Positions 31,973 to 63,081 of a stretch of 64,000 nucleotides of DNA are shown piece by piece. The DNA is from Oopsacas minuta. Taxonomy: Eukaryota; Animalia; Porifera. Below the pieces are notes generated by a model. It searched no databases, was not told the DNA's origin, and saw only the letters and a list, made by a program, of their open reading frames with translations. The number at the start of each line of letters is the position of its first letter. Position 1 is the first letter of the stretch. A program made the translations under genes and the position numbers. The stretch covers positions 442,499-506,498 of the forward strand of contig JAKMXF010000066.1 of the NCBI GenBank assembly GCA_024704765.1, written 5' to 3'.

Positions 31973-41532
<9,560 letters not shown>

Positions 41533-42742: not shown

Positions 42743-45700
42743 ATGGCAACGAATTCAGATAGATTTGAAAACAACATGGAAATATATGATTGTGTGAATC
42801 CTATTGAGCACTTCGGGTTATGTCCTGTATGCTTGAAGGAATTTGAGGACCCCGTATGTTTGCAGTGTTCTCATACCGTTTGTAGAGGATGTTTGAAAGG
42901 GCGAGACGGCCAGCCTGTCATGGCATTTGAGAAGATTGTATGTCCAATTTGTCAGAAAGCTACTGTAACAAATGAGAATGGGTTAGATGGGCTTATGTGT
43001 GATACTTTTGCTAAGAAAATAGCTCAACTCAGCAAGCTAAAGAGCTCCAAACATAACATTAGTAAAATCAGATGTACTGCAGAATGTATGCAAGTAAGTT
43101 CCACACATCTGTTTGATATATTATCTTCAGTGGTTTATTACGCTCTCGTATACGATACAATAGAATAATAGAATTCAGTCCAAATGCTGAAGAACTAATT
43201 TGGCTGATTGTGACGTTACAAATTGACCACTGGTTTCTACGTGGCATGTTGCAATTAACAACTAACATATCGCCAATTTCCCTAATCATATACGTATACC
43301 TGTATAATTAGTACTATATCATTGTGGTGATTATCCATTAATTATAAACACATTTTCTAGCTATGTGACAATTATCTTATCCATAATATTCAAGGCACAT
43401 CTGTTATGAGTAGCCAGAAATATATTTCTATTTTGGCATAAAGGTTTTGCACTTACAGTTTCAATGGGATCATGGGCACTGAACTGAAAGCATTTTAAGC
43501 AGTGCTAAAATGGTGATAAAGCTATAGCAAATAATTCCTTAAATATTCATCATATATGTTGCTACAGTATGTGTACTTTTATAGATGTATAACGTTAAAG
43601 TACACATCGTTACAGCTGGGAAAAGTCCACATAACTCATAGCTATGATTATACATAGACTCTATGGGGTAATCTCTAACGTCAATTTGTTATATTTAGTA
43701 TATCGTATTAGCTATTATGCTATATTTTATTGTGAATACTGTTTAGGGAAGAGCAAAGGCAGTAGGATACTGCCTAGAGTGTTCTGTATATCTGTGTCAG
43801 CTAGATCTTAAAGTTCATCAGAAAGTTACAAAAGAGACCCATATAGTCATACCACTCAAAGAATTAATTTCTAAACAGACTAATGAACTGTTGCTCAAGG
43901 CTGCTCCTGTAAGATGTACTTACCATTTGGATGTAAGTATAGCTTTTATTTGTTAACAAGATCTGTAACGGTATATTATTTGCTTTTTTATAGGAAATTT
44001 ACACTTTCAATTTCTCATTGCGTTTTATGTATATCTTTTAAGACAGCTATTTAACTTTTTTTCAGCACGTGAACCCCTATACAAATTTTAACATATTCTG
44101 TATGACCCCAGTTCGGTATCCGCTAATTTTATTTCCTATATAAAGTAACTCCACATGAAATGCGTTTGTGCTAATATCCGTACTACGTCTATTATACTCT
44201 TATCATTATCAGGTCCAAGCTATGTACTACTGTCTTACATCTCAACTGCTATTATGTGCCCAGTGTAAATCCTCTCACAATCCTAATCACAACATAGAAT
44301 TGCTAGAATCTTATCTTAACTTATTGACAGAACGTACGAGGGAAAACTTAACAGCATACAGAGAAGAATCCGAGAAAATGCAGACAGAGGAGGTTAATCA
44401 GTGGAAGAAAATGAAAGATATAAAAATACAAATCGGGTCTTCATTTGACCGTCTCATATACAAACTGGAGAATCGTAAGAAGGAATTACTTAATAAGTTA
44501 GATAGCATTATTGATGAGACTAGGAATACCCTTGATAGCCACAGGCAGAAGATGGCACAGCTCGATCAACTCAGAGAACTTCTTATTGTAAGTCATTATT
44601 ATGTAGATTTTGGTTATAGTAGTATTACACCTGAAAAATATATTCCAATCCTGTCTAGCTAACCACACTTTACAATTATTCAATTCAAGCAGATTGGCTA
44701 TATTCTTTATTTTGCCAATTCTTGCTTCTGTTACAGAAATATCTTGTGTTTATATTAAAATATTGCTTACGGTAATATTTTGGATATAGTGATAAACGAA
44801 TCTGTGACCTACACGTATATCCAATATATCCTGTATTGATAATCTATTTGAATGACGAAACTGTACTGATACTGAAAGAGTTTAAAATTCAATTTCAAAG
44901 AGTTTATTTAATGAGGAAAAGGTCAAATGATTTGTTTGTTGACAACCTGAGTTGGTATATTGGGATTTAGAATAAGCTTAACTATTTGCAGGTTAAGAGT
45001 CGCTACCCTAAAGATGTATCTATGCTCCACTCCCTCCAGGAGCTGCATCAACGTTTCCAGGACCAGTTAAACATAACACGAGTTGAATACGATGTTCCTT
45101 ACAGTGACATACACTTTGACATGGATCCAAGCATACAAGTATGTTTACAGAATTTGGGTAGATTTCAAGTGACCAGAAATATCCTACCTGTTGCAGTAAT
45201 CAAAGATCCTGGTCAGCATGAAGTATTCAGTCCATACGCTATTGATGTTAAGAATCAGGGAATATTCGTGCTAGTCTCTGGCACTGCTAACCTTATAATC
45301 GTGTTCACTCATACTGGTGAACTTATGAAAACTATTCGGTTAGAAACGCAGAGTGAAGAATCCGTATCATTTGGTGGTTTAACTGTAACAGATTCGATTA
45401 TAATTGTTTGTGTAACAAGTAGGCACTGTTTACAAACGTATACACATGAAGGAGAGCTCATTAATATGATTGGGAAATTAGGACATGCTCAATTTGAATT
45501 CAACACTCCCATCGGTTTAGCTACTACAGTAGAAGGTCATCTTATAGTAGCTGATAGCAGGAATAACAGATTGCAAGTATTCACACCAGAATTGAAATTC
45601 TCTCATTTTATCGGGAGTTCTAATAGTGTACCAGGTGAGCTACGCTATCCAGCTGACGTGGGGCTTACGAAGAATAATCAAATAGTTTGTCTACATCAGG

Positions 45701-46098
45701 GTAATCCTTCTATCCACGTGTATTCATTCACGGGTATGCTGCTTAACCAATTAGGCTCTACTGTTAATAGCAATGAGTTACATTGTCCAGTGAGATTAGC
45801 TATTTCACAGTCAGGCCATATTGTTACAGTAGACAGGAGTAAGCCTTGTCTAGCAGTGTACGGATCAGATACTACTATTATGGTCCGTTTAGCCGGTATG
45901 TATAATGAAGTCTGGGGTGTTGCATTTAGTTCACAGAATAGATTATTCGTATGTGATGGAGATCACATAAAAGTGCTTAATTTACAGCCTTTTGAGTTGT
46001 TAGGTCGTACCAGACACTCCTCACTACCTGGGGATTCTAAACGTCATCTTACGGCTACATCTATTACAGGAAATTTTCCCTCTATTAGCGATGTTTGA
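42743..46098 (+). CDS. TRIM-NHL family E3 ligase-like protein (RING - B-box - coiled-coil - NHL repeats), about 4 exons
   Basis: Exon 1 (42743 to about 43090) is a RING: CPVCLKEFEDPVCLQCSHTVCRGCL...CPICQ. Exon 2 (about 43748-43933) is a B-box: GYCLECSVYLCQLDLKVHQK..H. Exon 3 (about 44212-44590) is a second B-box plus coiled-coil: YYCLTSQLLLCAQCKSSHNPNHN.... Exon 4 (44986-46098) carries six NHL repeats (FSPYAIDVKNQGIFVLVSGTANLIIVF..., TPIGLATTVEGHLIVADSRNNRLQVF...). Exon ends are approximate. Confidence 0.8.
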
Positions 46099-49436: not shown

Positions 49437-49513
49437 GGTTGTATTTCTATCCATTGTATAACAGTTACTATTATGCACTAGCGATCTAATTACTGATGTA
49501 AGGTAGCTCCTGT

Positions 49514-51691
49514 TTGAGATGTAGCATGAGTGAGAGCATATACGATCTAGCCAGAGAGGCTGAGCTCCTCAAATCCAATTTAAAACATCAACAAGAAGCC
49601 GCCTCCCCTCTTGACTGCTCCTGGACAACTAGACAGAGACTGGAGGATATTTACAGACAAATGCTATTAACGGATTTAAGCTTCTCGCTAGAGAATAGAA
49701 TAGAAGTTGATCTGTGGAATTGTGTGTTTAGAACTCAAATAAATTATCTACAGACTAATATCACTCATCAACAGGTAATTTTGTTATCATAGATTCCTTT
49801 GATAAATATAGATATTTTTAGTCCTATAAAACGTGATTTATTCGATATAAAGCGTAGTTAAATAATTCCATGAATTTTATGGTATTTTGGCGGTTTTGAG
49901 TCATACATTTAACTCCCGTTACATCGAACACGGATATATCAAAATTTGAAATTGTACAAATAATCAAATATGGTCCCAACTCCCAAACCAAAGTAAGATT
50001 ATATCCAAGTTCTTTATGAAAGTTTACTGTATTCTTGTTAGGGTACACAACGAGAAGAGACATTATCTAGCCTATATATATGTTTGGAAAGTACCTGTTG
50101 TTTCTATCATCAGCTGTTACAGAGCATATGCTATAAATATAATACTTCACTTCCTTCCTACCTTACTCCAGAGCAGATAGGAGTGTGTAGAAGATCAGTT
50201 AGTACTGTAACAGCTGGAGAAGATAATATACGAATTATAGGACAGGACTGTCTATTGAGGTTAGGAGATCTAGCTAGATATAGAGGGGAGTGTAACCTAG
50301 CTACCAAGTACTATAAGCAGGTTAGATTATTTTATTTACTCATAATTCAGTCACTATCTTAATTACATATTATAAGTAAGTATTCCCTTACTTAGGCATA
50401 TGATCTACTACCTGGCAAGAGCATAATATCTAATCAATTAGGACTCATAGCATCATCACAGGGTAACTTCTATAAAGCAGCATTCCACTACTCTCATTCT
50501 ATCATCAGTCACATTCCATTCTCCCCCAGTCGTAACAACCTAGAACAGATATTTGAGACTCACACTAGACAATTCCCAGATGAGATATCTGATTTATTAT
50601 CTTTCCAGACAGGATTCTTATACTTGTTATCTCTTCTGTATTTCTCTAAAGACCTTGCATTTCTTTCATTTCTACTTCCTAAACTCATGACAGCTCTCTC
50701 TTCCTTCTTACAGAAGGGAGAAGCTAAACACGAGTTTATTCTATGTACAGTGGGACTGTGTTTGTTTGCTTGTGTGATTAGTTACCAACCTTTGACTGGG
50801 CTAACACTTCATCAGGTAGTGCTTTATCCTTTCGTTGTAGTTAAATATTCTAATTTTAGAATTATTCTACTCAGTGAAACCTCCATAGACGTGGAAACAG
50901 TGTAGCATTCCCTAGTTTATGGAATTACACTTGTACACTTTCAATAGAGTACACTGTATTTTATTTCTATTATTATTTAGGCTACAGAATGTCTTACAGC
51001 AGAAGAACATCAGAAATGTAAACTATCTCTCATCTTGCTCTTAGAAACTACTTTAGTATTGCTATCAAACTCTCTATCTACTACATCCCATATGAATACC
51101 ATGCTACCATTCATTAACGCAACTCTCCATTGGTTAGCTACACACATACATCATATACCAGTAGATCAGCTGATCCAATTGCCTTCTCTTTGGCAGAGCT
51201 TAGCTAAGTTGTTGAATAGACTATCATTGAAATCTGGTTTTGAAACAAATATTGACGTCGCTCAGTGTTTAAGTGAGGAAATATCTTTAATCGAATTTCT
51301 ATCATACAAATATACACCCACTAACCTAACGAAATGTTCAAATGAAGAATTGTGTTTAGCTAAAATGATTTCTAATATTAAATCTATGACACAAAACAGC
51401 CAATGTAGTTTCCTCTCTCTCAATACACATGATGGTACATACAAACTAGTCTATACTTCTCCAACAGCTGATCAGCCTGTGGCAATAGAACATGACATTA
51501 TGACGTCACCTACTCTAAGCCCTCTCTTCGCTTCTCCACTGCTTAATAATTCTAACGACTGCTCTTTCTTTCCTAGTATATGGTCTGATACTCCTTATCA
51601 GCAGACTAGTCCACTGCTTACTACGCCTACTGTATCCTCCATAGATACTATTCAGTCCCTTTGGAACGCTTCAGACCCTGCTTCATCCTAA
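49514..51691 (+). CDS. EST1/SMG5-SMG7 family protein (14-3-3-like/TPR N-terminal domain), about 5 exons, no C-terminal PIN domain
   Basis: The exon at 50084-50330 reads FYHQLLQSICYKYNTSLPSYLTPEQ...CLLRLGDLARYRGECNLATKYYKQ, the conserved EST1/SMG7 'CL.HLGDIARYR...A..YY..A' signature. The following exon reads AYDLLPGKSIISNQLGLIASSQGNFYKAAFHYSHSI (SMG7-like 'G.PYNQLA.LA...' block). The C-terminal region is low-complexity and ends at 51691. Confidence 0.55.
49907..50031. mobile_element. MITE family A copy in an intron of the EST1/SMG-like gene
   Basis: TTAACTCCCGTTACATCGAACACGGATATATCAAAATTTGAAATTGTACAAATAATCAAATATGGTCCCAACTCCCAAACCAAAGTAAG...AAGTTTACTGTA. Confidence 0.7.
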
Positions 51692-51989
51692 AAGCTTTAT
51701 AATTGTTATATTTCTGTAATTAGATTAATGTAATTCGCTTTATTTCCTGCTTTGTTCATCGCTAAGATTGTTTCTGATTAAATAGTCATTTAAACAAAAC
51801 GAATGAAACTTTCAGAATGTTTTATATATTTTTAACACACTAGACCCTGATTAATACAAACACAGTTAATACGAACTCCAGATAAGCGAACACATTTTGA
51901 CCGTCCGTTCGAATTTGTATTTACGAGGTTCCACTGTATTTGGATAAAATCGCATGTCTACTTTAATATTTACATTTCTATTTACTTAA

Positions 51990-53207
51990 ATGTCTAGATT
52001 TATAGTTTATGAGATGCGAGATAATCTATTACTGATCCTTACTTCTCTTATCTTCACGACTGCTCTATCTACACAAGGCCCTAAGTTTAAATGTGAGCTA
52101 AATTATAAACACAGTACTGAAGGAGTTTACACTGTATACGACATAACTAATGGAATTATGCATGTAGCGAGTTTCGTTGGAGATCCTACCTTTATGATAT
52201 ATCGCACAAACAAATCTGATTCTCTGAAAATTCATTGCAACGAAAGTAAGCAAATAACAAATGTAGCTATCAGTAGTTATGAGTTGTTGTATGGATTTGT
52301 AATTAGGAATTTAATAGAGTTCAAAGTTCAAGGTTCAGGTGTAAATTTTAACCGGCAAAAGTTCGACAACAATACAGTTAACCTGTTCAACACAACATCT
52401 CTATCCAATTTGAAGTATAACATAACTAGTTTAGGTAAGAATTGTGACGAGACTGGGAAAATAACAGTATCTCTACAGCAAAAGAATATTAGTTCAAATT
52501 ACACACAAATGAATATTCTATTTAATTTCCAAGCTTACTCGAGTGAAGGGAGATTGATGAATCAACCTCGTTACGCGTACAGGGGTAATAATTCAGTGAT
52601 AGGTATTGTTATAAAGGATTATCAATACCATCTAACTAATACATCAAATCCTGCTAGCAGGCTAGCCCTAGAACTTGATTTCATACGGAATGATAAATCT
52701 CAGTTATTCTACTCCTCAGTATCTAATATAGATGATGAATACACACCAGCTGTATTCCTACAGAACACACTGTCACTACGACAAGGGGGCTATTACTACT
52801 GGAAGCCTATTGCGTATGTAGCTCAAGATAGAACAGTAGAGACTTCTATGATGGCTACTTACCTGAATGGTACTTATACTAACTCTACTGTTAAATTGAA
52901 TACTACAGGTTTTTACCATTATCTACAGGGTAATATTAATGCTAGTCTTGAGAGAGCATTTATGCTGTTTGGAACTGATGGCGATTCAACACTAAATGCT
53001 GATTATGTCTACTTCCGTATGGAGCTAGGACTAGGTACTCCACCCACTGATAGTATTTCTTTACCTCTGATTATTGCTATTGGGGTTGGATTTGGTCTCC
53101 CTGTGCTTGGACTACTGTTGGGGGTTGTTGGTATGTGTTTCTTTATGGCTTACAAATGCTGTTTCAGGAAAAGCACCAGAAATGCACGCTATGTAATGAT
53201 AAATTAG
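51990..53207 (+). CDS. Type-I membrane glycoprotein (signal peptide, about 20 N-glycosylation sequons, single C-terminal TM, short cytoplasmic tail), intronless, lineage-specific/unknown
   Basis: Hydrophobic N-terminus LLLILTSLIFTTALS. Many NxS/T sites (NKSD, NESK, NFNR, NNTV, NTTS, NITS, NISS, NYTQ, NNSV, NTSN, NGTY, NSTV, NTTG, NAS...). TM segment LPLIIAIGVGFGLPVLGLLLGVVGMCFFMAY followed by KCCFRKSTRNARYVMIN*. Confidence 0.5.
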   Translation: MSRFIVYEMRDNLLLILTSLIFTTALSTQGPKFKCELNYKHSTEGVYTVYDITNGIMHVASFVGDPTFMIYRTNKSDSLKIHCNESKQITNVAISSYELLYGFVIRNLIEFKVQGSGVNFNRQKFDNNTVNLFNTTSLSNLKYNITSLGKNCDETGKITVSLQQKNISSNYTQMNILFNFQAYSSEGRLMNQPRYAYRGNNSVIGIVIKDYQYHLTNTSNPASRLALELDFIRNDKSQLFYSSVSNIDDEYTPAVFLQNTLSLRQGGYYYWKPIAYVAQDRTVETSMMATYLNGTYTNSTVKLNTTGFYHYLQGNINASLERAFMLFGTDGDSTLNADYVYFRMELGLGTPPTDSISLPLIIAIGVGFGLPVLGLLLGVVGMCFFMAYKCCFRKSTRNARYVMIN

Positions 53208-53643
53208 ATATGATGTACATGTTTGTAAGTAACCGCAGTTTGCTTCTTTAACTTTTGAACTTTATTTTAGCGAAACTTTCCCTTCTTGAAACGTATACAT
53301 ACTTGTTACAAAATTTATGTACATTCGTATTTGAGCTATTACTATTATTACATTATAATCTATGTACACTTTATTAGATTAGAGATTTAATCATACAGCA
53401 TGATCAGTCGATGCCCATCAATTCCTTTGCTGTTAGAGTGTTAAATGAATTATTGTACCATCATTATAGGTCGCTCTATGTGTGGCCGTTAAGGCCCCAG
53501 AATGTATAGTTATGGTGGGATGTATTGTCTCGAGACACAATCTTTCGGGTAGAGAGCATTCTGACCTATATTTTCGCAATTTGAGCTTATAAACATCTTA
53601 AGCTATATAATTTTCGGATCTAATCTTTATATATTATAGGTTA

Positions 53644-56600
53644 TTGCTATTTGAAATGTCTAGAATATTCCTGTGTGGCTCTCGTTCAGTAGGAAAGACA
53701 ACTCTATGTAAAGATTGGTGTGAATGGAATAAAGAATATGTTCATATTAATGGAAATGACGTCACTAGTGAAGTAATGGATGCAAATAATATTAGTCGTG
53801 ATGATATTATTAATTCTTTGAATACAGAAGCTAAAGAGTTATATTACAATCTACAGAAGTATCTTTTTATTGAGCAAAACAAGAGAGAAGAATTGCTAAG
53901 TGATCGATTGTTCATATCTGATAGCGGACCAGATCCTCTTATTTATACTCACAAAGAAAGTAAGGATATGTCTTATAAATTGTATAAGCATGAAGATGTT
54001 ACGAATTGCTTCAATCTCTACCGCAAGAGTTTAATAGTTGTAGTAGCTCCTTTAGAAGATGACAGAGAACATAATTCTTATACAAAGGTATTGAGACATG
54101 TATTACAAGAGTGTGGTGTACCTTATATGTACCTGAGAGAGAGGGTTAGATCAAAAAGATTAGAAATACTTAAGATAGCAGCTATTAATGGGTGTGTCCT
54201 TATGCCATTGGATCAGTTAAAAGAACAGCAGTGTCTTGCTTACTACATGGACATAGGAACTGTGAAAAATCGCATATTTTGCTCTCCAATGTCTCTGCAA
54301 GATAATACAGCCTATATTCGTAAATTCATAATATATCCATATGAAATACAATTATCTATTCAATCAATGGACAGTACTAATCGTATGCTAGAGAGATATG
54401 GTATAGGTAATTTTGTATTACTTGAATTCCACTGGAAAGTTAGTGATAATGACATTAAAGATATTCTGGGTATAGGACTATATGTAGATGGTGATGAATA
54501 CCAGTTTATAGGTTGTAGCTCAGAGGAATTGAGGAGTAGGACTTGTTACCTTATGAAGGGAGATACTAATTACATTGATGCTGTATTGAGTGAGTGTGGA
54601 GATTTTTCTGGGGTAAACACGGTTGCTGAGAGGTTGAATAGGATAGGATACCTATTCTCAAAAGGTATAAATACAGGTGTAGCTATTAGCAATGACGAGT
54701 TTGAGGTTATTGAAGATGTCTCAAATGCTGGAAGGATATTCACTGATGGTTGTGGATTAATTGGATTGAATTTAGCTAAGAAATTGGCTATAGGTTCTAA
54801 TGTGGGTATAAACTCTCCAGATGATAATATTCCAGGTGTTTTTCAGATCAGATTCCAAGGGTACCAATGTGTTGTTATGAAGGCCCCAAAAGAAAACCAA
54901 GATTCTTTTCAGTTAAGAAATTCTATGTTGAAATATAATACTGGAACAAAGCCTTTTCCACATATCTGGATCTGCAACCATTCTCGTCCTAATTCATACG
55001 GCAATCTAAACAAACAGTTTATTATGTTACTATCTGGACGAGGGATAAGTGACAAAGTTTTCCTTACAAAACAAGATAGTTATTTCACTGCATTAGAGAA
55101 TATGTTAATCGATCCTAAATTCGCTATTAAACTTCTTAACTGGAAAAACTACACAGAACTAGCCGAAACAGTAGCTGCCTGTCCTTCTACCGAGGATATG
55201 CAACAGAACAAAGAAATACAAAACAAACTCAAATACCTCAAAAATACACTTGTAGAGAGAATTGACGAATTAGAAATTCCAGTTATTAACTCGCGATATA
55301 TGTTTGGTGTCTGTGATCCTAATCAGCTGTTAGAATACGGAGAATGTTTCGTTAGATACACATTGAATGATGAACTAAAAACACTACAGGCAGGAACTTC
55401 TGTGATTGTTGGGAAGAATCCTTGTTATCATCTCGAAGATATTAGAGTTTTAATCACAGTAGATTATCCTGAATTGAATCATTTAGTTGATTGTATTGTA
55501 TTTCCTGTAAAAGGTGAGAGACCCCATACATCTGAGATTGCTGGTTCTAGTCTAGGTGAGGACCGGTATTTTGTGTGTTGGGACGATAATCTGATCCCTA
55601 AAGATGTACCAAAACCTTATAAATACCTTGAAATAGAACCTGATCGAGCTCAAAACATATCTCGTGAAAATATCATCGAGTTCTTCGCTGGTTGTATGAA
55701 TAATATGGATATGATTAATTCATATTATCAATATTGGGCAGATAAACTAGGAGCAGGTTGTAGAGCTTGTAGAGATCTGGCTCAGCTGTTATCCAGAGGT
55801 GTAGCTTCTACAACAACAGTTGATAAGTTACCATGTGATCCCAAACCTCACAGAAATAAAAATCTCACATCACACGGTGAAATGGTTTGGCATAAGATGA
55901 AGATAATAGCTCGTAGTAAAAGGAAGACGTTTACACTAGATACCATTGAAGATGCTCTGGTTAATACATGTTATGTCTCCTCTATTCCAGAAGACTTTAT
56001 GATAAGAATATTGAAGGATAAAGATAGGAGTATTCCTGAATACAAAATACTAATTACCTTATACAAATGGTGTAGGAGACTCAAATTAACTGACATTGAG
56101 ATAATTGATAAATTCATTGAGCTGTCCAGCTTTATAAACTTCGGTATTCTAACACTGAATGAGAGGATTGAAGCTATTAACCATGGCATACCAACTACTC
56201 ATGTAATGAACGCGTTATACAAGTCTAGAATACTCACTACAAAGATGTTACAGTCTCTGAAATTACCTTGTTATGGATGGGAATATTGCTTCAGAGAGAA
56301 GAGTAGTGATTTTGCCTGGAGCGATTTGTCTACTGCTATTACTAGTTTTACTGAATCTTTTATTATTCTTCAACTTGAAGAGTACATTTTAGCTTTCCAT
56401 ATTATTGGTACGATTCGACTAGGGGACTCTGTGTTACCGCCTGGAAGCCTGACGTCATATTTATTCTCTGGGGGACAAATGTTCAGATACGTAACAGAAT
56501 GTCATTATAATATTAATTTAGCTACAGAAGTAATACAATTTTATATCGAACATAAAGAGAATACATTTCTGTTTATGAAAAGATTCGGCAGAAGTTCTAA

Positions 56601-59600
56601 GAATGATTTTGAAGGTGTCAAATATGATATTATTAGTATTGAGTTGGATAAATTCAAAACTGAATCCTCTGGAAATTCCAAACATCCTCTAATACGGAAA
56701 AAGAACTTCCAAATGATTGAGGTATTCGTTAAGAATAAATTCCAGCAGGAGATCAGCTGCTCTTTAGATGCCAATTCCCATCCGACAGAGAACGAGCTGG
56801 AGGATCTGCTGAGTGAAGATAAAGACTGTTTCATTGAACTACAAACTCTACCTGATTCACCGTTATTAGCTATGAAGGAATTTGCTTGTAAAGGAGATGG
56901 TATAGGATTCTCTGGAGTACTACAACATATCAATGTATCTTCTATTAATAGTGTTATATTAATAGAACAATTCCTTATTCTTCTGTCAAATGTTATTGCT
57001 AAAATAGCACATAAATGTAGTTCGGAGTTACATACACAAGCATTGGAAGTCTATTGTAATCCTGGAGATCAAACTATTGAGCAAGAATGTTCGGAATTGC
57101 CAACACCATCAAGTATCTTCGAAATAGCTAGTACAGTTGATAATCAAGTTATTCATACGATAGGAGATAGCTATCATGATACAAATCCATTCGTTCATGA
57201 AGTAGAGCAGTACACACATGATAAGAAGTATAGTAGTAGAAATAGCGTAAGATTAACGGTACCATTAATAGAGGAAAATGGATCAGATCTAGACGCACAA
57301 CCAATGGAGGCTAAGAAATTATCTACAGAGTCACTTATACAGGAAACTGGACCAGAAGAACAAGTATCATCATTGGATAAGTTCAGTGAATCTTTATTAG
57401 AACCTGTAGCTGAAACACAAACAATTCGTAATGGTACTCAATCATCAGGTCTTGTTGTAAAGGAAGTTAGGTCAGAGATACTAATAGAAATCTCTGATAC
57501 AGAAAAAGCACTGGCTACTCCATTTGCCAAGGGAGATCAATCCGAAACACAAACAACTTGCAATGACATCCAATCCTCTAATACTGTTATACAGGAAAAT
57601 AAACCAGCATTACTAATAGAATTGTCTGATACAGAAATTACACCAGATAATACATTTGTACAATCAGATCAACCAAAAATTCAATCAATTTGTAGTGGCG
57701 GACAACCGTCAGAACCTGTTCTGAAAAATCCACCAAAAATACTTATAGAATTATCAGACACAAAAATTACCGCGGAAGATTTATATATCCAAGCAGCTCA
57801 ATCAGAAACACGAGCAATTTGTAATGATATCCATATCCAATCGTCAGAGCATGTTCTCCAGGAAAATATACCTGACTTACTAATTGAATTATCAGAAACA
57901 GAAATTACACCAGATAATACATTAGTACAGTCAGATCAACCAGAAATTCAATCAATTTGTTGTGAAGAACAACCGTCAGAGCCTGTTCTGGAAAATAAAC
58001 AAGAAATACATATGAAATTCTCAGATACGAAAATTACCGCGGATAATTCATATATACAGGCAGATCAATCCGAAACAAAACCAATTTGTAGTGATATCCA
58101 TATCCAATCGTCAGAGCATGTTATACAGGAAAATACACCTTTGTTGCTAATAGATACGTCAGTTTCAGAAATTACACAAGATAATCCAATTATCAACGCT
58201 GATGAACTAGAAATTCAAGAAACAATACAATCAATGGCAGTGATAGATGATCAACTTGTTAAAGCGACTGAATTACGAGATACATTCAAATCCTTGGAAG
58301 AGATATTGAATTCTCCTCATATAGAAATAACACAAGCAAGAGATATACTGCTTCTCTACAGTAGTCTCAGCAAATTACATCTTTATGACGTCATCAAACA
58401 GCATCTTTGCAAGTCAATCGATACAATTGAGATTCCAACAATAGCTCAGTATCTTGACTGTATTTCTAATTGGGAGTTGTGGACATTCCTTCCACTGTCA
58501 GTATCCAGTCAGCTGTCTAATCAGCTGTTTAAGTTATCTCTTAATCTTGACACTATACATACACCGGATCCTGAACATTTTGATGAAAAAGCTCCGAGTA
58601 TTCAGGATTTGTGTATGAAAAGTGGAGTACCTTCATTTGATCAAAACATACTGAATTATTACAGATGTTATTTCTCTCATTTAATACTAAACTCTCTTCT
58701 AAACGAGTCTATTGTAGAAGAAATGATTGAGAATTCTGATACTACATTGTGTATGTGGAGGATGGTTTATTGTCAAGAAGAAGAACGCCTGGATGATGAT
58801 GCTACTGCTAATCCATGTGAAATTAAGAAAAAATGTAAGGCATGCTTCTCTCCAACAAGCAAGATTATGACAGATAAATTCACATTAGGTTCTTATGTCA
58901 AAATCAGCTTTGTAGCTAGATCTACATCTTCTAACTCGAGTATGCCAATTGCACTAGGCTACATATCAACAGTATCAAATATTCTAGGTCGTATTACAGT
59001 AGAAATATTGGATCCTGTCCCTGATTGCCTAAAGAGAGCAGGTCGACTTGAGGTAGGCATATGGACTCTCACCTTGCTAGACAACATTACTACATTCAAG
59101 AATTGTACCAAAGCTCTACATAGCTTACACGAGAGTAAGATTATTTCTATATTAATACATCCTAAAGGGTTCCCTCCTCTTCTAGAGATAGCACAAGAAC
59201 ACAATTTAGACTATACATCTAAACAATCTCTACCTCCAGAAGAGATAGAAAATGTTTCGCATCCTTATGATGTATTCCCTAACTGTCAGGGTTGTAATAA
59301 TAGGATTAGCTTCAATGAGAGACAGGAAAATGCCATCATCTCCGCTCTCGGAGACTCCCTTACTCTGATACAGGGTCTGCCTGGTACTGGTAAGACTGTA
59401 GTAGCAGCAGAGATTGTACATCAGTTACGTCATCTGATTAGACTTAAAGATAGATGTGATACTGCTAAAATGCTAGTTACAGGTGTTACTAATATCACTG
59501 TGGATAATCTCACATATAAACTGTTGGATTTAGGGATGCTAGTGTTGCGTATTGGGGAGACTACCAAAGACCTACGTGAATACTCCTTAGAATATCAGCT

Positions 59601-60573
59601 GCAAATGAAAGGGATAGAACTACAAGAAAATGGAGAGTTTAAAGAAGAAGAAATAATCAATAAAATATTAAAATCAGCTGATATAATCGCTACAACATGT
59701 TCAAGAACAGGAGATAATATTCTGAAGAATATAACATTCCCTTATATACTAATCGACGATGCTACTCAAGTGATAGAACCTATATCATTAATTCCTATAG
59801 TCAAATCTTGTGAGAGGCTTATTCTCATAGGAGACCCACAACAACTAGTACCCAAGTTACCATATGAACCAGAGGGTGTGATTCCTCTAAATGCACTTCG
59901 TGTTACTCTATTCCACAGGTTACATGCTCAAATGGAGCCTCTTTCGCTAGTTGAACAGTATCGTATGCATCCTGCTATAGCTGAATTTCCTTCTAGATTA
60001 TTCTATTCTGGGAGATTGAGAACAGCAGTCAGCTGTTTGAATAGAACACCGCCTAATGTTAGGTTCCTCACTAAAGACAGACCTGTTACATTCTGTAATG
60101 TAGAATCAAGAGAAGAGGAAGCTGGAAGTTCTTGGAAGAATACAGGAGAAGCTAATAAAGTTGTAGAGATTATTAAAGAACTGATAGCTACTACAGAATA
60201 CAAAGTATCTGATATTGGAGTAATTACACTGTATGTCGGACAAGTTAAATGCATTAAAGATACGCTAGGTAGGATACAAGTAGATGTAGATACTATAGAC
60301 AGCTATAGAGGCAGGGAGAAGGAAGTAATTGTATTCAGCACTGTTCGGAACACAAAACACGGAGATATTAGTCTTATAGAAGATTTAAATACAATAAATG
60401 TGTTGTTAACAAGAGGAAGGCGAGCAATAATCGGAGTTGGTAACCCTATGACTCTGTCTAGATCTCATATCTGGAATGAATGGTACTATTTCTATTTTGA
60501 AGGAGACAATGAAGACGATAAACCGCCGCATGATGACGTCACTGAGGCTTCAGATTGGGCATGGGATGCTTGA
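53644..60573 (+). CDS. Giant intronless ORF (2309 aa): P-loop NTPase/kinase-like module + eukaryotic RDR-type RNA-dependent RNA polymerase-like domain (degenerate catalytic loop) + tandem 44-aa repeats + UPF1-like superfamily-1 RNA helicase
   Basis: One uninterrupted reading frame of 6.93 kb. It fuses four modules (see the individual domain features below for the motifs): an N-terminal P-loop NTPase module, an RDR-type RdRP-like core whose DxDGD loop reads SLGED, tandem repeats, and a C-terminal UPF1-like SF1 helicase. Confidence 0.85.
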   Translation: MLFEMSRIFLCGSRSVGKTTLCKDWCEWNKEYVHINGNDVTSEVMDANNISRDDIINSLNTEAKELYYNLQKYLFIEQNKREELLSDRLFISDSGPDPLIYTHKESKDMSYKLYKHEDVTNCFNLYRKSLIVVVAPLEDDREHNSYTKVLRHVLQECGVPYMYLRERVRSKRLEILKIAAINGCVLMPLDQLKEQQCLAYYMDIGTVKNRIFCSPMSLQDNTAYIRKFIIYPYEIQLSIQSMDSTNRMLERYGIGNFVLLEFHWKVSDNDIKDILGIGLYVDGDEYQFIGCSSEELRSRTCYLMKGDTNYIDAVLSECGDFSGVNTVAERLNRIGYLFSKGINTGVAISNDEFEVIEDVSNAGRIFTDGCGLIGLNLAKKLAIGSNVGINSPDDNIPGVFQIRFQGYQCVVMKAPKENQDSFQLRNSMLKYNTGTKPFPHIWICNHSRPNSYGNLNKQFIMLLSGRGISDKVFLTKQDSYFTALENMLIDPKFAIKLLNWKNYTELAETVAACPSTEDMQQNKEIQNKLKYLKNTLVERIDELEIPVINSRYMFGVCDPNQLLEYGECFVRYTLNDELKTLQAGTSVIVGKNPCYHLEDIRVLITVDYPELNHLVDCIVFPVKGERPHTSEIAGSSLGEDRYFVCWDDNLIPKDVPKPYKYLEIEPDRAQNISRENIIEFFAGCMNNMDMINSYYQYWADKLGAGCRACRDLAQLLSRGVASTTTVDKLPCDPKPHRNKNLTSHGEMVWHKMKIIARSKRKTFTLDTIEDALVNTCYVSSIPEDFMIRILKDKDRSIPEYKILITLYKWCRRLKLTDIEIIDKFIELSSFINFGILTLNERIEAINHGIPTTHVMNALYKSRILTTKMLQSLKLPCYGWEYCFREKSSDFAWSDLSTAITSFTESFIILQLEEYILAFHIIGTIRLGDSVLPPGSLTSYLFSGGQMFRYVTECHYNINLATEVIQFYIEHKENTFLFMKRFGRSSKNDFEGVKYDIISIELDKFKTESSGNSKHPLIRKKNFQMIEVFVKNKFQQEISCSLDANSHPTENELEDLLSEDKDCFIELQTLPDSPLLAMKEFACKGDGIGFSGVLQHINVSSINSVILIEQFLILLSNVIAKIAHKCSSELHTQALEVYCNPGDQTIEQECSELPTPSSIFEIASTVDNQVIHTIGDSYHDTNPFVHEVEQYTHDKKYSSRNSVRLTVPLIEENGSDLDAQPMEAKKLSTESLIQETGPEEQVSSLDKFSESLLEPVAETQTIRNGTQSSGLVVKEVRSEILIEISDTEKALATPFAKGDQSETQTTCNDIQSSNTVIQENKPALLIELSDTEITPDNTFVQSDQPKIQSICSGGQPSEPVLKNPPKILIELSDTKITAEDLYIQAAQSETRAICNDIHIQSSEHVLQENIPDLLIELSETEITPDNTLVQSDQPEIQSICCEEQPSEPVLENKQEIHMKFSDTKITADNSYIQADQSETKPICSDIHIQSSEHVIQENTPLLLIDTSVSEITQDNPIINADELEIQETIQSMAVIDDQLVKATELRDTFKSLEEILNSPHIEITQARDILLLYSSLSKLHLYDVIKQHLCKSIDTIEIPTIAQYLDCISNWELWTFLPLSVSSQLSNQLFKLSLNLDTIHTPDPEHFDEKAPSIQDLCMKSGVPSFDQNILNYYRCYFSHLILNSLLNESIVEEMIENSDTTLCMWRMVYCQEEERLDDDATANPCEIKKKCKACFSPTSKIMTDKFTLGSYVKISFVARSTSSNSSMPIALGYISTVSNILGRITVEILDPVPDCLKRAGRLEVGIWTLTLLDNITTFKNCTKALHSLHESKIISILIHPKGFPPLLEIAQEHNLDYTSKQSLPPEEIENVSHPYDVFPNCQGCNNRISFNERQENAIISALGDSLTLIQGLPGTGKTVVAAEIVHQLRHLIRLKDRCDTAKMLVTGVTNITVDNLTYKLLDLGMLVLRIGETTKDLREYSLEYQLQMKGIELQENGEFKEEEIINKILKSADIIATTCSRTGDNILKNITFPYILIDDATQVIEPISLIPIVKSCERLILIGDPQQLVPKLPYEPEGVIPLNALRVTLFHRLHAQMEPLSLVEQYRMHPAIAEFPSRLFYSGRLRTAVSCLNRTPPNVRFLTKDRPVTFCNVESREEEAGSSWKNTGEANKVVEIIKELIATTEYKVSDIGVITLYVGQVKCIKDTLGRIQVDVDTIDSYRGREKEVIVFSTVRNTKHGDISLIEDLNTINVLLTRGRRAIIGVGNPMTLSRSHIWNEWYYFYFEGDNEDDKPPHDDVTEASDWAWDA
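53656..54250 (+). other. N-terminal P-loop NTPase/kinase-like module of the giant ORF
   Basis: Walker A CGSRSVGKTTL at the N-terminus, Walker B-like hhhhD (LFISDSG), about 200 aa. The family is not assignable from sequence alone; nucleotide/polynucleotide kinase-like or AAA_28/AAA_33-like are possibilities. Confidence 0.5.
54400..55850 (+). other. RDR-family RNA-dependent RNA polymerase-like domain; catalytic loop DxDGD replaced by SLGED (55549-55563)
   Basis: VGKNPCYHLEDIRVLITVDYPELNHLVDCIVFPVKGERPHTSEIAGSSLGEDRYFVCWDDNLIP aligns position-for-position with the canonical cellular RdRP block '...NPC.HPGD.R.L.AV..P.L.H..DC.VFPQKG.RPH..E.SGSDLDGD.YFV.WD..L.P'. Confidence 0.8.
57475..58245 (+). 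repeat. In-frame tandem repeats (about 6 units of about 44 aa / about 132 nt, arranged as about 2.5 super-repeats of about 88 aa) inside the giant ORF
   Basis: Units read ILIEISDTEKALATPFAKGDQSETQTTCNDIQSSNTVIQENKPA / LLIELSDTEITPDNTFVQSDQPKIQSICSGGQPSEPVLKNPPKI / LIELSDTKITAEDLYIQAAQSETRAICNDIHIQSSEHVLQENIPD / LLIELSETEITPDNTLVQSDQPEIQSICCEEQPSEPVLENKQEI / HMKFSDTKITADNSYIQADQSETKPICSDIHIQSSEHVIQENTPL / LLIDTSVSEITQDNPI... Confidence 0.85.
58840..60450 (+). other. UPF1-like SF1 helicase domain (AAA_11/AAA_12-type) of the giant ORF, with a preceding beta-barrel-like N-terminal region
   Basis: Motif I LIQGLPGTGKTVV (about 59370-59410). Motif II ILIDDATQ (about 59745). Motif III LILIGDPQQL (about 59820). 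Motif IV-like QYRMHPAIAEFPSRLFYSG (about 59950). Motif V TIDSYRGREKEVIVFSTVR (about 60290). Motif VI VLLTRGRRAIIGVGN (about 60400). Confidence 0.8.
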
Positions 60574-60804: not shown

Positions 60805-61929
60805 CTACATTTGTTCTTCCTTCGCCATTCCCTTCATGAATGGCTCTCTGTTTTTATTTTGAAATTTCCTGACCATTTCATTGACAATTCCATCCTGACT
60901 TTCTGTGAAGTCTGATCTCGTTCTCATCTTTGGATTTTTAATCACGGTTTGTTGTCGCATGTAACAAGGAATATGTTGTAAAGAAGAGGCAATATCTTTG
61001 CTTTCATTTTCCATCAATAGGATATCCCTTTCTCTTGGATCACAGAATTTTATCGAGGACATATTGACATAATTATGATTCATTGCGCTGTTACCCATGA
61101 TAGGAGAATGTGGTGCACTCCTACTAAGCCGTATATTATCTGCTGCTGTATATGAGCTAGGCATATTCAGCCTGCAATATTCATTGGAGTCAAAAGCAAT
61201 TCTATAATCAATATCATTATCCGTTGCCTGATGTTCGTTATCATAAGTATATGCTCTATCCAGTTTATTTAATCTCCTAGAAGTGAATTGTCCAGTAGAT
61301 GGGCTACTTGTATTGATCTTGGTATTATATTGGTGTATACGTTCATAATCTTGTGATTGTGAATAGAAATTCGTGCTTCGTGACTTTTTAAGTTTGCCAG
61401 GTTCGAAATCAAAAGCTTGTTCACATAATGGAGTTACATCTGTGTCGATATAGTTCATAGAACTAGCTACACTCGGATTTGCATTTGTCAAGAGGTCTAA
61501 GTAGAAAGGCATAGTTCTCTCTGTTTGGTTACTAGTAACACAAATCTCCTCTGAATTCTGGATACACCACGTCATGTTTGCAATTTTACTGTGTTTATTG
61601 ATCTCGAATAATTTTACTGTTCTATCCCAGTGTATTTCAATGATAGGTTTTCTTGCTTGATTATACTGAATCTCAGATTCTATATTAGCCATTAATCTTT
61701 TCTTCGAGGAATACAAAGAGCTGTACTCTGATATTTCCTGATCCACATCGTGTTTGACCTTCTGTAATTTCGCGATATCTCTTTTCCACTCCCTCTCTAA
61801 TTTATCTATTTCATCGTATAATTGGTTTTGTATATTATTTAGAAGTCTACTAAACTCGATAAACTTATTCTTTACTACATCTCTAGCATTGTCAAAAGGA
61901 CAATACTCTGAATCTGTTCTATACTGCAT
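60805..61929 (-). CDS. Hypothetical protein (374 aa, intronless): N-terminal coiled-coil (about 100 aa), otherwise low-complexity Ser/Asn/Tyr-rich; no recognisable domain
   Basis: Long ORF convergent with the giant ORF (stops 232 bp apart). N-terminus LLNNIQNQLYDEIDKLEREWKRDIAKLQKVKHDVDQEISEY has a heptad-like pattern. Could be lineage-specific. Confidence 0.4.
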   Translation of the reverse strand: MQYRTDSEYCPFDNARDVVKNKFIEFSRLLNNIQNQLYDEIDKLEREWKRDIAKLQKVKHDVDQEISEYSSLYSSKKRLMANIESEIQYNQARKPIIEIHWDRTVKLFEINKHSKIANMTWCIQNSEEICVTSNQTERTMPFYLDLLTNANPSVASSMNYIDTDVTPLCEQAFDFEPGKLKKSRSTNFYSQSQDYERIHQYNTKINTSSPSTGQFTSRRLNKLDRAYTYDNEHQATDNDIDYRIAFDSNEYCRLNMPSSYTAADNIRLSRSAPHSPIMGNSAMNHNYVNMSSIKFCDPRERDILLMENESKDIASSLQHIPCYMRQQTVIKNPKMRTRSDFTESQDGIVNEMVRKFQNKNREPFMKGMAKEEQM

Positions 61930-63081
61930 TGAATCTGTTGATATTTCATTTTATACTTTATAAACGAGCATATATATATATCACCAAATACACGAGCACG
62001 ATGTCTCCAATTACATATCTTATCTTGATATATCAGGAATTGCTCTACAAATAGGACTTTAGGAGAAATATTACTAAATATTTGTAAGTACAAAAAATAT
62101 CTAATTTTGAAATCTGCTAGCACTACGTATGATATTTCAACACAATCATTTTTACTATATACTTTGTTATATTCATTTATTAGAGGACATATCTTGTCCG
62201 TGATCAGTATTAGTTATATACTCTTGGATCTACCGTGTTAACACAACTGTAGATTCTGCATCAGTTTAATCAACTGTTCTTTACGACACATAACTTCACC
62301 CTCTCTTCTTAACTACATCTAATCTCTACTATATTTATTTTGTGGTAAGTTTAACGATACAATCCAGAGGTTTCATACTTCAGTAGGTTAATTATTGCAA
62401 TATTATCCTTGAAGAGGTTACTTTATGCTTTCTGCATTAATAATCATTATCTTTGCATTTCTATTTCAAATATTGATATATGTGTATAGTAGTTCTAAAT
62501 ATATACCAGTTCTAAATATATACCAGTTCTATTTTGGTATATATTGGTGTATTCAATGTACTTAAGTTACAAGTAGTGGAACCATTAGTCCTGCGTGAAT
62601 CTTTACATAACTATTTACTAGTAGGCTAATTAATCAACTCAGAGTAGTGACTAACTATCCATTTTACCAGCAATTTGCAACCGTTTCATCCGTGGACCAA
62701 CAAGGGGTCATTTGCCCCCAGGTTTGGGATCGCTACATAATGCAATAATTCATGAGATTATTCGTTGTTCCACTTTCGTTTATCCAAATTTCTGAGTCTG
62801 TAAATAGTTCTGTGATGTATCATCCTGTTATGCAACGAATTCTCTAATATTATATGTACAACTGTCTCTACAAAAATATTTATAGACCTAATATTTACAC
62901 AAGTTGCTTATAATCATAAAAATTATTTTCCTACAGATATATTCGCTCAGTATGGCATTTTAAACCAATCAATGTTCCTTTTCAATTCAATGCCCAATTA
63001 TATTCAAATCGTGTTTATAACAAATTACTCAACTGATCACATCTCACACACAAGAGAAAAACTTTTACGCAAATACGCGAA

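Follow-up and report, generated by a model that had tools for sequence, protein, structure and literature searches.

The stretch of DNA considered here (the window) comprises 64,000 nucleotides of the glass sponge Oopsacas minuta (GenBank assembly GCA_024704765.1, contig JAKMXF010000066.1, positions 442,499 to 506,498 of the forward strand). Our subject is a single-exon gene of 2305 codons plus a stop at window positions 53656-60573 (+), delimited by the open reading frame (ORF) list, its translation and Pfam. Its product is an exact match to GenBank KAI6659112.1, which is labelled 'Regulator of nonsense transcripts 1'. Seven ORFs of the window have identical counterparts among the GenBank proteins of O. 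minuta. Within it lies a cellular two-barrel RNA-dependent RNA polymerase (RdRP) domain (PF05183, amino acids (aa) 227-716, 54334-55803, +) that matches the Pfam profile significantly and over its full length (E=2.2e-92, profile positions 2-528 of 582) and also matches RDR2 and QDE-1 in PDB. The loop at the centre of the polymerase active site has lost catalytic residues.

The canonical catalytic loop reads DLDGD. At the equivalent position KAI6659112.1 reads SLGED (aa 632-636, 55549-55563, +), with the substitutions D632S, D634G and G635E and with D636 kept. Positions 55486-55584 (+) translate to VDCIVFPVKGERPHTSEIAGSSLGEDRYFVCWD, and phmmer against PDB aligns this region to Arabidopsis RDR2 without gaps around the loop (...ECSGGDLDGDQFFVSWD versus ...EIAGSSLGEDRYFVCWD, E=1e-45), the loop itself pairing as GGDLDGDQFFVSWD with GSSLGEDRYFVCWD. 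The original prediction, made for positions 55540-55587 (AGSSLGEDRYFVCWDD), held that SLGED replaces DxDGD in gapless register with the active site and that the glycine of DGD has become glutamate, and both statements stand. It was mistaken in naming the first and third aspartates as those lost: the first (D632S) and second (D634G) are gone and the third is retained. Its description of an otherwise intact ORF agrees with the 2305 uninterrupted codons. DLDGD is found in 40/40 first-round homologues covering the loop, and 90 of the 95 aligned members of the gene's own family have D.DGD together with the KG and GD motifs; these 90 also share FTDGCG, QIRxxGxKG and NPCxxxGD. Judged against these relatives, the deviation of SLGED is far beyond chance.

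We give practically no weight to the idea that the true loop is DLDGD and that SLGED is a sequencing or assembly error. The loop codons (AGT CTA GGT GAG GAC) are at least four separate nucleotide substitutions away from DLDGD within five codons, with no indel, and the other two reading frames at this place are full of stops. Further active-site changes occur elsewhere in the domain, the assembly was built from PacBio reads polished with Illumina/Pilon (PMC10280926), and independent assemblies of two other species have degenerate loops at the orthologous locus.

The changes elsewhere in the domain affect several of its best-characterized positions. FTDGCG (54739-54756, +) retains D364, which from the position of the motif probably corresponds to QDE-1 D709, the fourth (DPBB1) aspartate. 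The DPBB1 motif that binds product and nucleoside triphosphate (NTP) reads QIRFQGYQC (54844-54870, +); Q397 and R399 are kept, but K404Q and G405C replace a near-invariant KG. K404Q corresponds to QDE-1 K743, which sits 7 residues past Q736. In QDE-1, Q736 and R738 bind product, and two lysines of DPBB1, K743 and K767, touch product and NTP phosphates (PMC9508822). In the PGD motif of DPBB2 (NPCYHLED, 55417-55440, +) the family alignments place G594E, which is probably the position of the silencing-defective RDR6 allele G825E, as located by spacing (38 residues before the first aspartate of the triad) rather than by alignment. Finally, GVASTTTV (55798-55821, +) replaces aVDFaKTG, with D717A and K720T. 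In the RDR2 alignment K720 pairs with RDR2 K923 (K1119 in QDE-1), the proposed trigger-loop lysine that touches the incoming NTP (PMC8713982). The flanking motifs had been called extremely well conserved, and this is true of some of them: FTDGCG, QxR, NPC, VDCIVFP..G.RPH and YFVCWD are kept in Oopsacas, but K404Q, G405C, G594E, D717A and K720T contradict so general a statement.

The gene has orthologues in two further glass sponges. Four samples yielded contigs (L004-L007) that encode its closest relative (P0175, 2097 aa, 53-56% identity in the RdRP domain); one of these samples is SRR11455650, a Vazella pourtalesii metagenome (Table S1 of Bayer et al. 2020, PMC7426153). A third orthologue, from a third species (P0343, 2082 aa), lies on a 656-kb contig (L012). 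The window and Vazella have a common gene order, consisting of an EST1-like gene, a gene of ~200 aa, GLMP/NCU-G1, the RdRP-helicase gene and a minus-strand gene. The synteny with L012 is longer and comprises NHL, a proteasome subunit, EST1, GLMP, the RdRP-helicase gene, RING, MBT and a Na/Ca exchanger. The syntenic stretches are located at 49478-53228 and 60805-61932 of the window, at 2112-5730 of L004 and at 226-7664 of L012. We rejected an origin from a transposon or as a retrogene, which one long exon might suggest, given the synteny of the locus in three species and the scarcity of introns genome-wide; a single exon is not unusual in O. minuta, because its genes average 1.6 introns (PMC10280926).

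Two observations on the neighbouring genes may be recorded here. Directly upstream of the RdRP-helicase gene, all three species have an EST1-domain (SMG5/6/7-like) gene and a GLMP/NCU-G1 gene. Further upstream in the window are NHL-repeat ORFs (TRIM-NHL-like; 39268-40866, -, and 44986-46098, +), one of which has a counterpart in L012.

The active site is degenerate in all three orthologues, and the residues that replace the canonical ones vary. Vazella has QITFQGYKG at the QxR/KG motif, LLSD at PGD and HYGGD as its loop, and the third species has QITFQGYKG, LLTD and HSDGD; at the three loop positions altered in Oopsacas, the residues of Oopsacas, Vazella and the third species are S/H/H, G/G/D and E/G/G. 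G572, G594, D632, D717 and K720 are altered in all three. In 90 canonical family members, 107 columns of the RdRP domain are conserved to 95% or more. Oopsacas departs from the conserved residue in 16 of these columns, Vazella in 24 and the third species in 19, and the canonical paralogues of the same species do so in 0 and 1. In the first column test, 6 of 9 Oopsacas deviations fell within active-site motifs (Fisher p=2e-4, with a post hoc grouping).

What these losses mean for catalysis can be judged from mutants of related enzymes. All three aspartates of the QDE-1 triad (D1007, D1009 and D1011) are ligands of metal A, and the first two are also ligands of metal B; D1007A, D1009A and D1011A are each without detectable activity (PMC9508822). 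Because two of the three aspartates are lost, metal A would be left with one of its three aspartate ligands in the Oopsacas protein and metal B with none of its direct aspartate ligands. RDR2 G833E and RDR6 G866E, both at the glycine of DGD, and RDR6 G825E and D826N in DPBB2 are loss-of-function alleles (PMC8713982), and E635 is the same change as RDR2 G833E. Since the protein combines several changes that are individually inactivating elsewhere, we strongly infer, by analogy with these QDE-1, RDR2 and RDR6 mutants, that polymerase catalysis has been lost and that the domain cannot plausibly catalyse phosphodiester bond formation.

The original prediction also entertained an unusual active-site solution, that is, an active polymerase in which E635, D636 and D364, for example, would hold the metals. 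The retention of D636, D364, Q397 and R399, the new acidic residue beside D636 and the purifying selection on the RdRP domain described below would all fit such an enzyme. We nevertheless consider it quite improbable. A single alanine at the first or second aspartate abolishes QDE-1 activity (PMC9508822), RDR2 and RDR6 alleles with the same glycine-to-glutamate change in the loop have lost their function (PMC8713982), and K404 and K720, contacts of NTP or product, are gone as well. A new active site is further disfavoured because the substituted residues are not conserved among the orthologues but differ between species, as at unconstrained positions.

Despite this degeneration, the gene has been maintained. 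All three syntenic ORFs are intact (2305, 2097 and 2082 aa), and the same intact ORF is present in four Vazella individuals; the original prediction had raised the alternative of decayed, frameshifted orthologues, and none of these is. Between Oopsacas and Vazella the ratio of non-synonymous to synonymous substitution rates (dN/dS) is ~0.15 for the RdRP domain and 0.20 overall, with synonymous sites saturated (proportion of synonymous differences, pS, ~0.70) and with YN00 yielding no estimate for the whole gene and for 4 of 6 regions. Because of this saturation the third species was added to gain an unsaturated pair. Between Vazella and the third species the synonymous divergence (dS) is 0.37-0.58, and dN/dS is 0.31 in the RdRP domain (bootstrap confidence interval 0.23-0.40; dS 0.37), 0.29 for the whole gene, 0.25 in the helicase and 0.52 in the linker, the highest of all regions. 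The ratio is thus well under 1 in every domain, the dead RdRP included. These values answer the call for dN/dS across related species, and they agree with the suggestion that the RdRP domain, almost certainly non-catalytic, is nonetheless under purifying selection. Polymorphism among the four Vazella samples (3 synonymous and 3 non-synonymous codons) is too sparse to inform.

A pseudogene early in decay, with an ORF still open by chance, would also have lost catalytic residues, and two observations could be read in this way. Each of the three enzymatic modules of the Oopsacas copy shows degeneration at catalytic or near-invariant residues. This copy also evolves faster than its closest canonical relative: the Tajima relative-rate test is significant with 3/6 outgroups, and root-to-tip lengths are 1.30-1.38 for the dead genes and 1.05-1.08 for the canonical relatives. 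However, the probability of a random ORF of 2305 codons at this base composition is ~7e-74, and in a neutral simulation of the Oopsacas ORF (substitution only) 0.5% of ORFs were still open at 3% amino-acid divergence and 0/200 at 12%, where the mean was 19 stops; the latter corresponds to the change observed. Together with the three intact syntenic orthologues, the four intact Vazella individuals and dN/dS of 0.15-0.31 with confidence intervals far under 1, this makes decay very improbable.

The genome of O. minuta also contains the canonical DLDGD paralogue whose presence the original prediction proposed to check. This protein (P0336, 'Regulator of nonsense transcripts 1 [Oopsacas minuta]', 2061 aa) is encoded on another contig and has all motifs in canonical form: FTDGCG, QIRFLGCKG, NPCYLLGD, DLDGD, GPPGTGKT, DE and FQG. 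In Vazella, a paralogue canonical in all motifs (P0176) occurs on contigs of the same samples as the dead copy and adjoins an ATR-like gene. Protein identity in the RdRP domain is 63% within the canonical pair and 53% within the dead pair. Neighbour joining on the RdRP domain unites the three dead genes in one clade (bootstrap 100/100) with longer branches. This clade groups with another degenerate family member, P0183, at 37/100, next to a clade of both canonical glass-sponge copies, and the dead and canonical glass-sponge groups together fall inside sponge sequences. In the simplest scenario, the gene was duplicated in the glass-sponge lineage and one of the two copies lost catalysis before the three species diverged.

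Two features of the canonical paralogues in these assemblies deserve mention. The Vazella copy is called as two overlapping ORFs, of 1507 aa and then 613 aa with the helicase, in four independent assemblies (L008 8001-14314, also L009-L011); the pre-helicase region and the helicase are probably separated by either a short intron or a genuine frameshift. On another contig (L001 1-11682, ERZ26869290 ctg329792) there are several partial inverted copies of the canonical paralogue with frame breaks, which look like a fold-back artefact of long-read assembly and not like real gene copies.

Taking together the lost catalytic residues, the orthology and synteny, the canonical paralogue in the same genome and the purifying selection, we hypothesize, with a probability of roughly 80%, that KAI6659112.1 is a glass-sponge-specific RdRP-helicase paralogue that is catalytically dead and is kept by purifying selection beside a canonical copy. 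After the duplication, one copy would have kept all catalytic motifs (P0336 in Oopsacas, P0176 in Vazella), and the other, 53656-60573 of the window, would have lost RNA-polymerase catalysis. Its RdRP fold would now serve a non-catalytic role within a helicase-containing RNA-handling protein, perhaps by holding RNA or a protein partner. The dead copy may also pair with its active paralogue, since RdRPs of the QDE-1 type work as dimers with one idle protomer. We consider it more likely that the conserved function resides in the overall fold (in partner or template binding, or in pairing with the active paralogue), because the product-binding residues are not kept uniformly across the orthologues.

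Several points weigh against this hypothesis. The non-catalytic role is deduced rather than observed. The retained D636, D364, Q397 and R399 and the acidic pair E635-D636 make residual or altered metal binding possible. A dN/dS of ~0.3 is above what is usual for core enzymes and indicates partial relaxation. It is doubtful that the former active site still binds RNA, since R399 is lost in Vazella and in the third species and K404 is lost in Oopsacas. The third species retains the second aspartate, which leaves the order of the losses uncertain. A more specific and rather unlikely extension is that glass sponges have a machine for RNA silencing or surveillance in which the dead paralogue is a dedicated subunit for regulation or recognition, either paired with the active paralogue or using its inert polymerase cleft and its helicase together as an RNA clamp or sensor, and that the whole fusion family would be an 'RDRC on one polypeptide' underlying RdRP function in sponges, cnidarians, molluscs and rotifers.

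The C-terminal part of the protein is an Upf1-like superfamily 1 (SF1) helicase core (AAA_11/AAA_12, aa ~1890-2263, 59311-60444, +; Pfam E=1e-47 and 1e-36). Its best PDB match is Upf1/Nam7 (E=2e-55). A ZNFX1/Hrr1-type identity was rejected, since Upf1 is a much better match than ZNFX1 (5e-31). In canonical family members the detectable helicase motifs are GPPGTGK[TS], DE and [FY]QG. The Oopsacas copy has GLPGTGKT as its Walker A (59374-59397, +), which fits GxxxxGK[ST], LIDDATQ at motif II, or Walker B (59749-59769, +; E2035D, giving DD for DE), and SYRGREKE at motif V (60301-60324, +; Q2218R, giving YRG for FQG). Motif II is detectable in 105 of the nearest helicase homologues, and none of these has DD there or arginine in motif V; the motif II glutamate column is at least 95% glutamate in 82 canonical family members. 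The same change of glutamate to aspartate at motif II has occurred independently in P0183. The Vazella orthologue keeps GPPGTGKT, DE and FQG, and that of the third species keeps DE and FQG, with one proline of Walker A changed to serine. The dead copies have lost 10-12% of helicase columns versus 15-22% of RdRP columns, and the canonical paralogues 0-1% (columns at least 95% conserved).

These alignments suggest that the Oopsacas helicase is probably weakened as an ATPase through the Walker B change; it could possibly work as a slow ATPase or as an ATP-bound clamp. Such weakening would shift the protein further toward a pure binder or scaffold. The presumption that a dead polymerase is fused to an active helicase is not upheld for Oopsacas, where LIDDATQ, the motif V arginine and GLPGTGKT all depart from the canonical motifs.

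The helicase core also accounts for the database label. KAI6659112.1 shares with UPF1 an AAA_11/AAA_12 helicase core at ~30-35% identity, but differs by its RdRP domain, by DD at Walker B and by the lack of a CH zinc-knuckle. Neither PF09416 (CH zinc-knuckle) nor PF18141 was matched in a Pfam search at E<=0.01, and true UPF1 proteins carry both. Given its RdRP domain and the missing CH domain, the protein is not a UPF1 orthologue. The name 'Regulator of nonsense transcripts 1' stems from the helicase core and is a misannotation, for this protein and likewise for P0336.

Ahead of the RdRP domain stands an N-terminal P-loop NTPase domain resembling AAA_28 (aa 3-163, 53656-54150, +; Pfam and alignments). 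The AAA_28 match is weak (E=2.5e-5, under the gathering score). In the alignments, both the Oopsacas and the Vazella dead copies miss a 13-residue segment that canonical members have in this domain (consensus DDGFRMVP...); despite this loss, the domain retains its Walker A, GSRSVGKT (53677-53700, +).

Behind the RdRP domain comes a family-conserved middle region (aa 745-1095, 55888-56940, +) without a sequence match in Pfam or in a PDB profile search. It has a helical part followed by a TLDc-like beta-sandwich at aa ~874-1026. In an AlphaFold model of the region, with a predicted local distance difference test score (pLDDT) of 73.7, the top 11 Foldseek hits in PDB are all TLDc domains, among them NCOA7, OXR2, mEAK7 and TBC1D24, and the model thus indicates that the region carries a TLDc-like fold. 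We know of no report of a TLDc domain within an RdRP-helicase protein.

The linker that follows contains in-frame tandem repeats (57530-58218, +), which Tandem Repeats Finder resolves as a period of 267 bp in 2.6 copies and one of 129 bp in 3.8 copies. They encode units of the form ...LLIELSDTEITPDN..., and the Vazella orthologue has a gap at that place; the repeats are an Oopsacas-specific expansion of a poorly conserved linker. Between linker and helicase is a family-specific pre-helicase region (aa 1546-1880, 58291-59295, +), which is colinear in L001-L003 and in the family proteins and gave no known domain in Pfam or in the PDB profile search.

The same architecture characterizes a large family of animal proteins: a P-loop NTPase, the RdRP, a helical region with a TLDc-like domain, a linker, the pre-helicase region and an Upf1-like helicase. 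Exhaustive searching of 1.84 billion representative proteins with HMMER, together with a second search seeded with a canonical relative, brought to light well over 100 proteins that are 1500-2400 aa long, carry a helicase at the C terminus and have their RdRP in the same place. A word-index protein search with the RdRP domain gave 47 matches and missed KAI6659112.1 and its closest relatives. In tblastn, L001-L003 are colinear with the window protein end to end. The members come from demosponges (Ephydatia muelleri, Dysidea avara), cnidarians (Actinostola, Hydractinia), bivalves (Mercenaria, Mytilus) and rotifers (Rotaria). KAI6659112.1 shares their full colinear order and is a member by descent, as judged from the tree; however, canonical members keep the polymerase motifs, and it and its two orthologues do not.

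The characterized enzymes Arabidopsis RDR2 and RDR6 and Neurospora QDE-1 share with KAI6659112.1 the full-length RdRP match and the gapless loop alignment. Unlike these canonical RdRPs, KAI6659112.1 has SLGED, has replaced the DPBB1 lysine, the PGD glycine and the trigger-loop lysine, and combines the domain, within its 2305 aa, with a P-loop NTPase, a TLDc-like domain and an Upf1-like helicase.

The closest precedents for its degeneration are Rdr3 of Paramecium tetraurelia and those RdRP genes of amphioxus that lack an intact DbDGD. Rdr3 has a divergent catalytic domain and is genetically required for transgene-induced RNA interference (RNAi) (PMC2896523); a non-canonical RdRP can therefore be functional. 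However, Rdr3 (and Rdr4) belong to an unrelated lineage with no helicase fusion, and Rdr3 still has three aspartates at altered spacing. Its function was demonstrated by genetics, whereas that of KAI6659112.1 is deduced from sequence. In amphioxus, 3/6 RdRP genes have an intact DbDGD (Pinzon et al. 2019, PMC6396948), so that animal RdRP paralogues without an intact active site exist beside intact ones, as in the glass sponges. Several of the degenerate amphioxus genes are truncated, whereas in glass sponges orthology extends over three species and dN/dS has been measured. The amphioxus gene BL02069 combines an RdRP with AAA_12 (Pinzon et al. 2019, PMC6396948) and resembles the fusion family in this domain pair.

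RdRPs and helicases also meet in RNAi complexes, such as the S. pombe RNA-directed RNA polymerase complex (RDRC; Rdp1 with Hrr1), C. elegans RRF-1 with DRH-3 and plant RDR6 with SDE3. In these, the RdRP and the SF1 or superfamily 2 (SF2) helicase are separate proteins, and the helicases belong to other subfamilies. The fusion family, in contrast, has both on one polypeptide with a helicase closest to Upf1, and in KAI6659112.1 the polymerase appears to be dead.

The role of cellular RdRPs in animals beyond nematodes has yet to be settled (Pinzon et al. 2019, PMC6396948). Glass sponges provide a natural experiment in this respect, with an active-looking and a dead RdRP-helicase in the same genomes and the dead one conserved in at least three species. 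Its conservation across three species suggests that some function of the RdRP fold therefore needs no polymerisation. More broadly, a large uncharacterised family of animal RdRP-helicases has been hidden under the labels 'Regulator of nonsense transcripts 1' and 'uncharacterized protein', and our literature search returned no paper on an RdRP in Oopsacas and none on an RdRP-helicase fusion family in sponges. Correcting this misleading annotation also brings a caution: counts of RdRP genes are not evidence for RNAi amplification unless the active site has been checked.

Other degenerate RdRPs, which arose independently, turned up among the homologues. They include P0183 (2013 aa; DLAGD, QVM..TC), P0224 of Pycnogonum litorale (NLGGD), P0035 and P0042 (DLGG[TS]K with GFEG) and P0374 (GG for GD). 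From these sequences, dead RdRP paralogues may be recurrent in animals.

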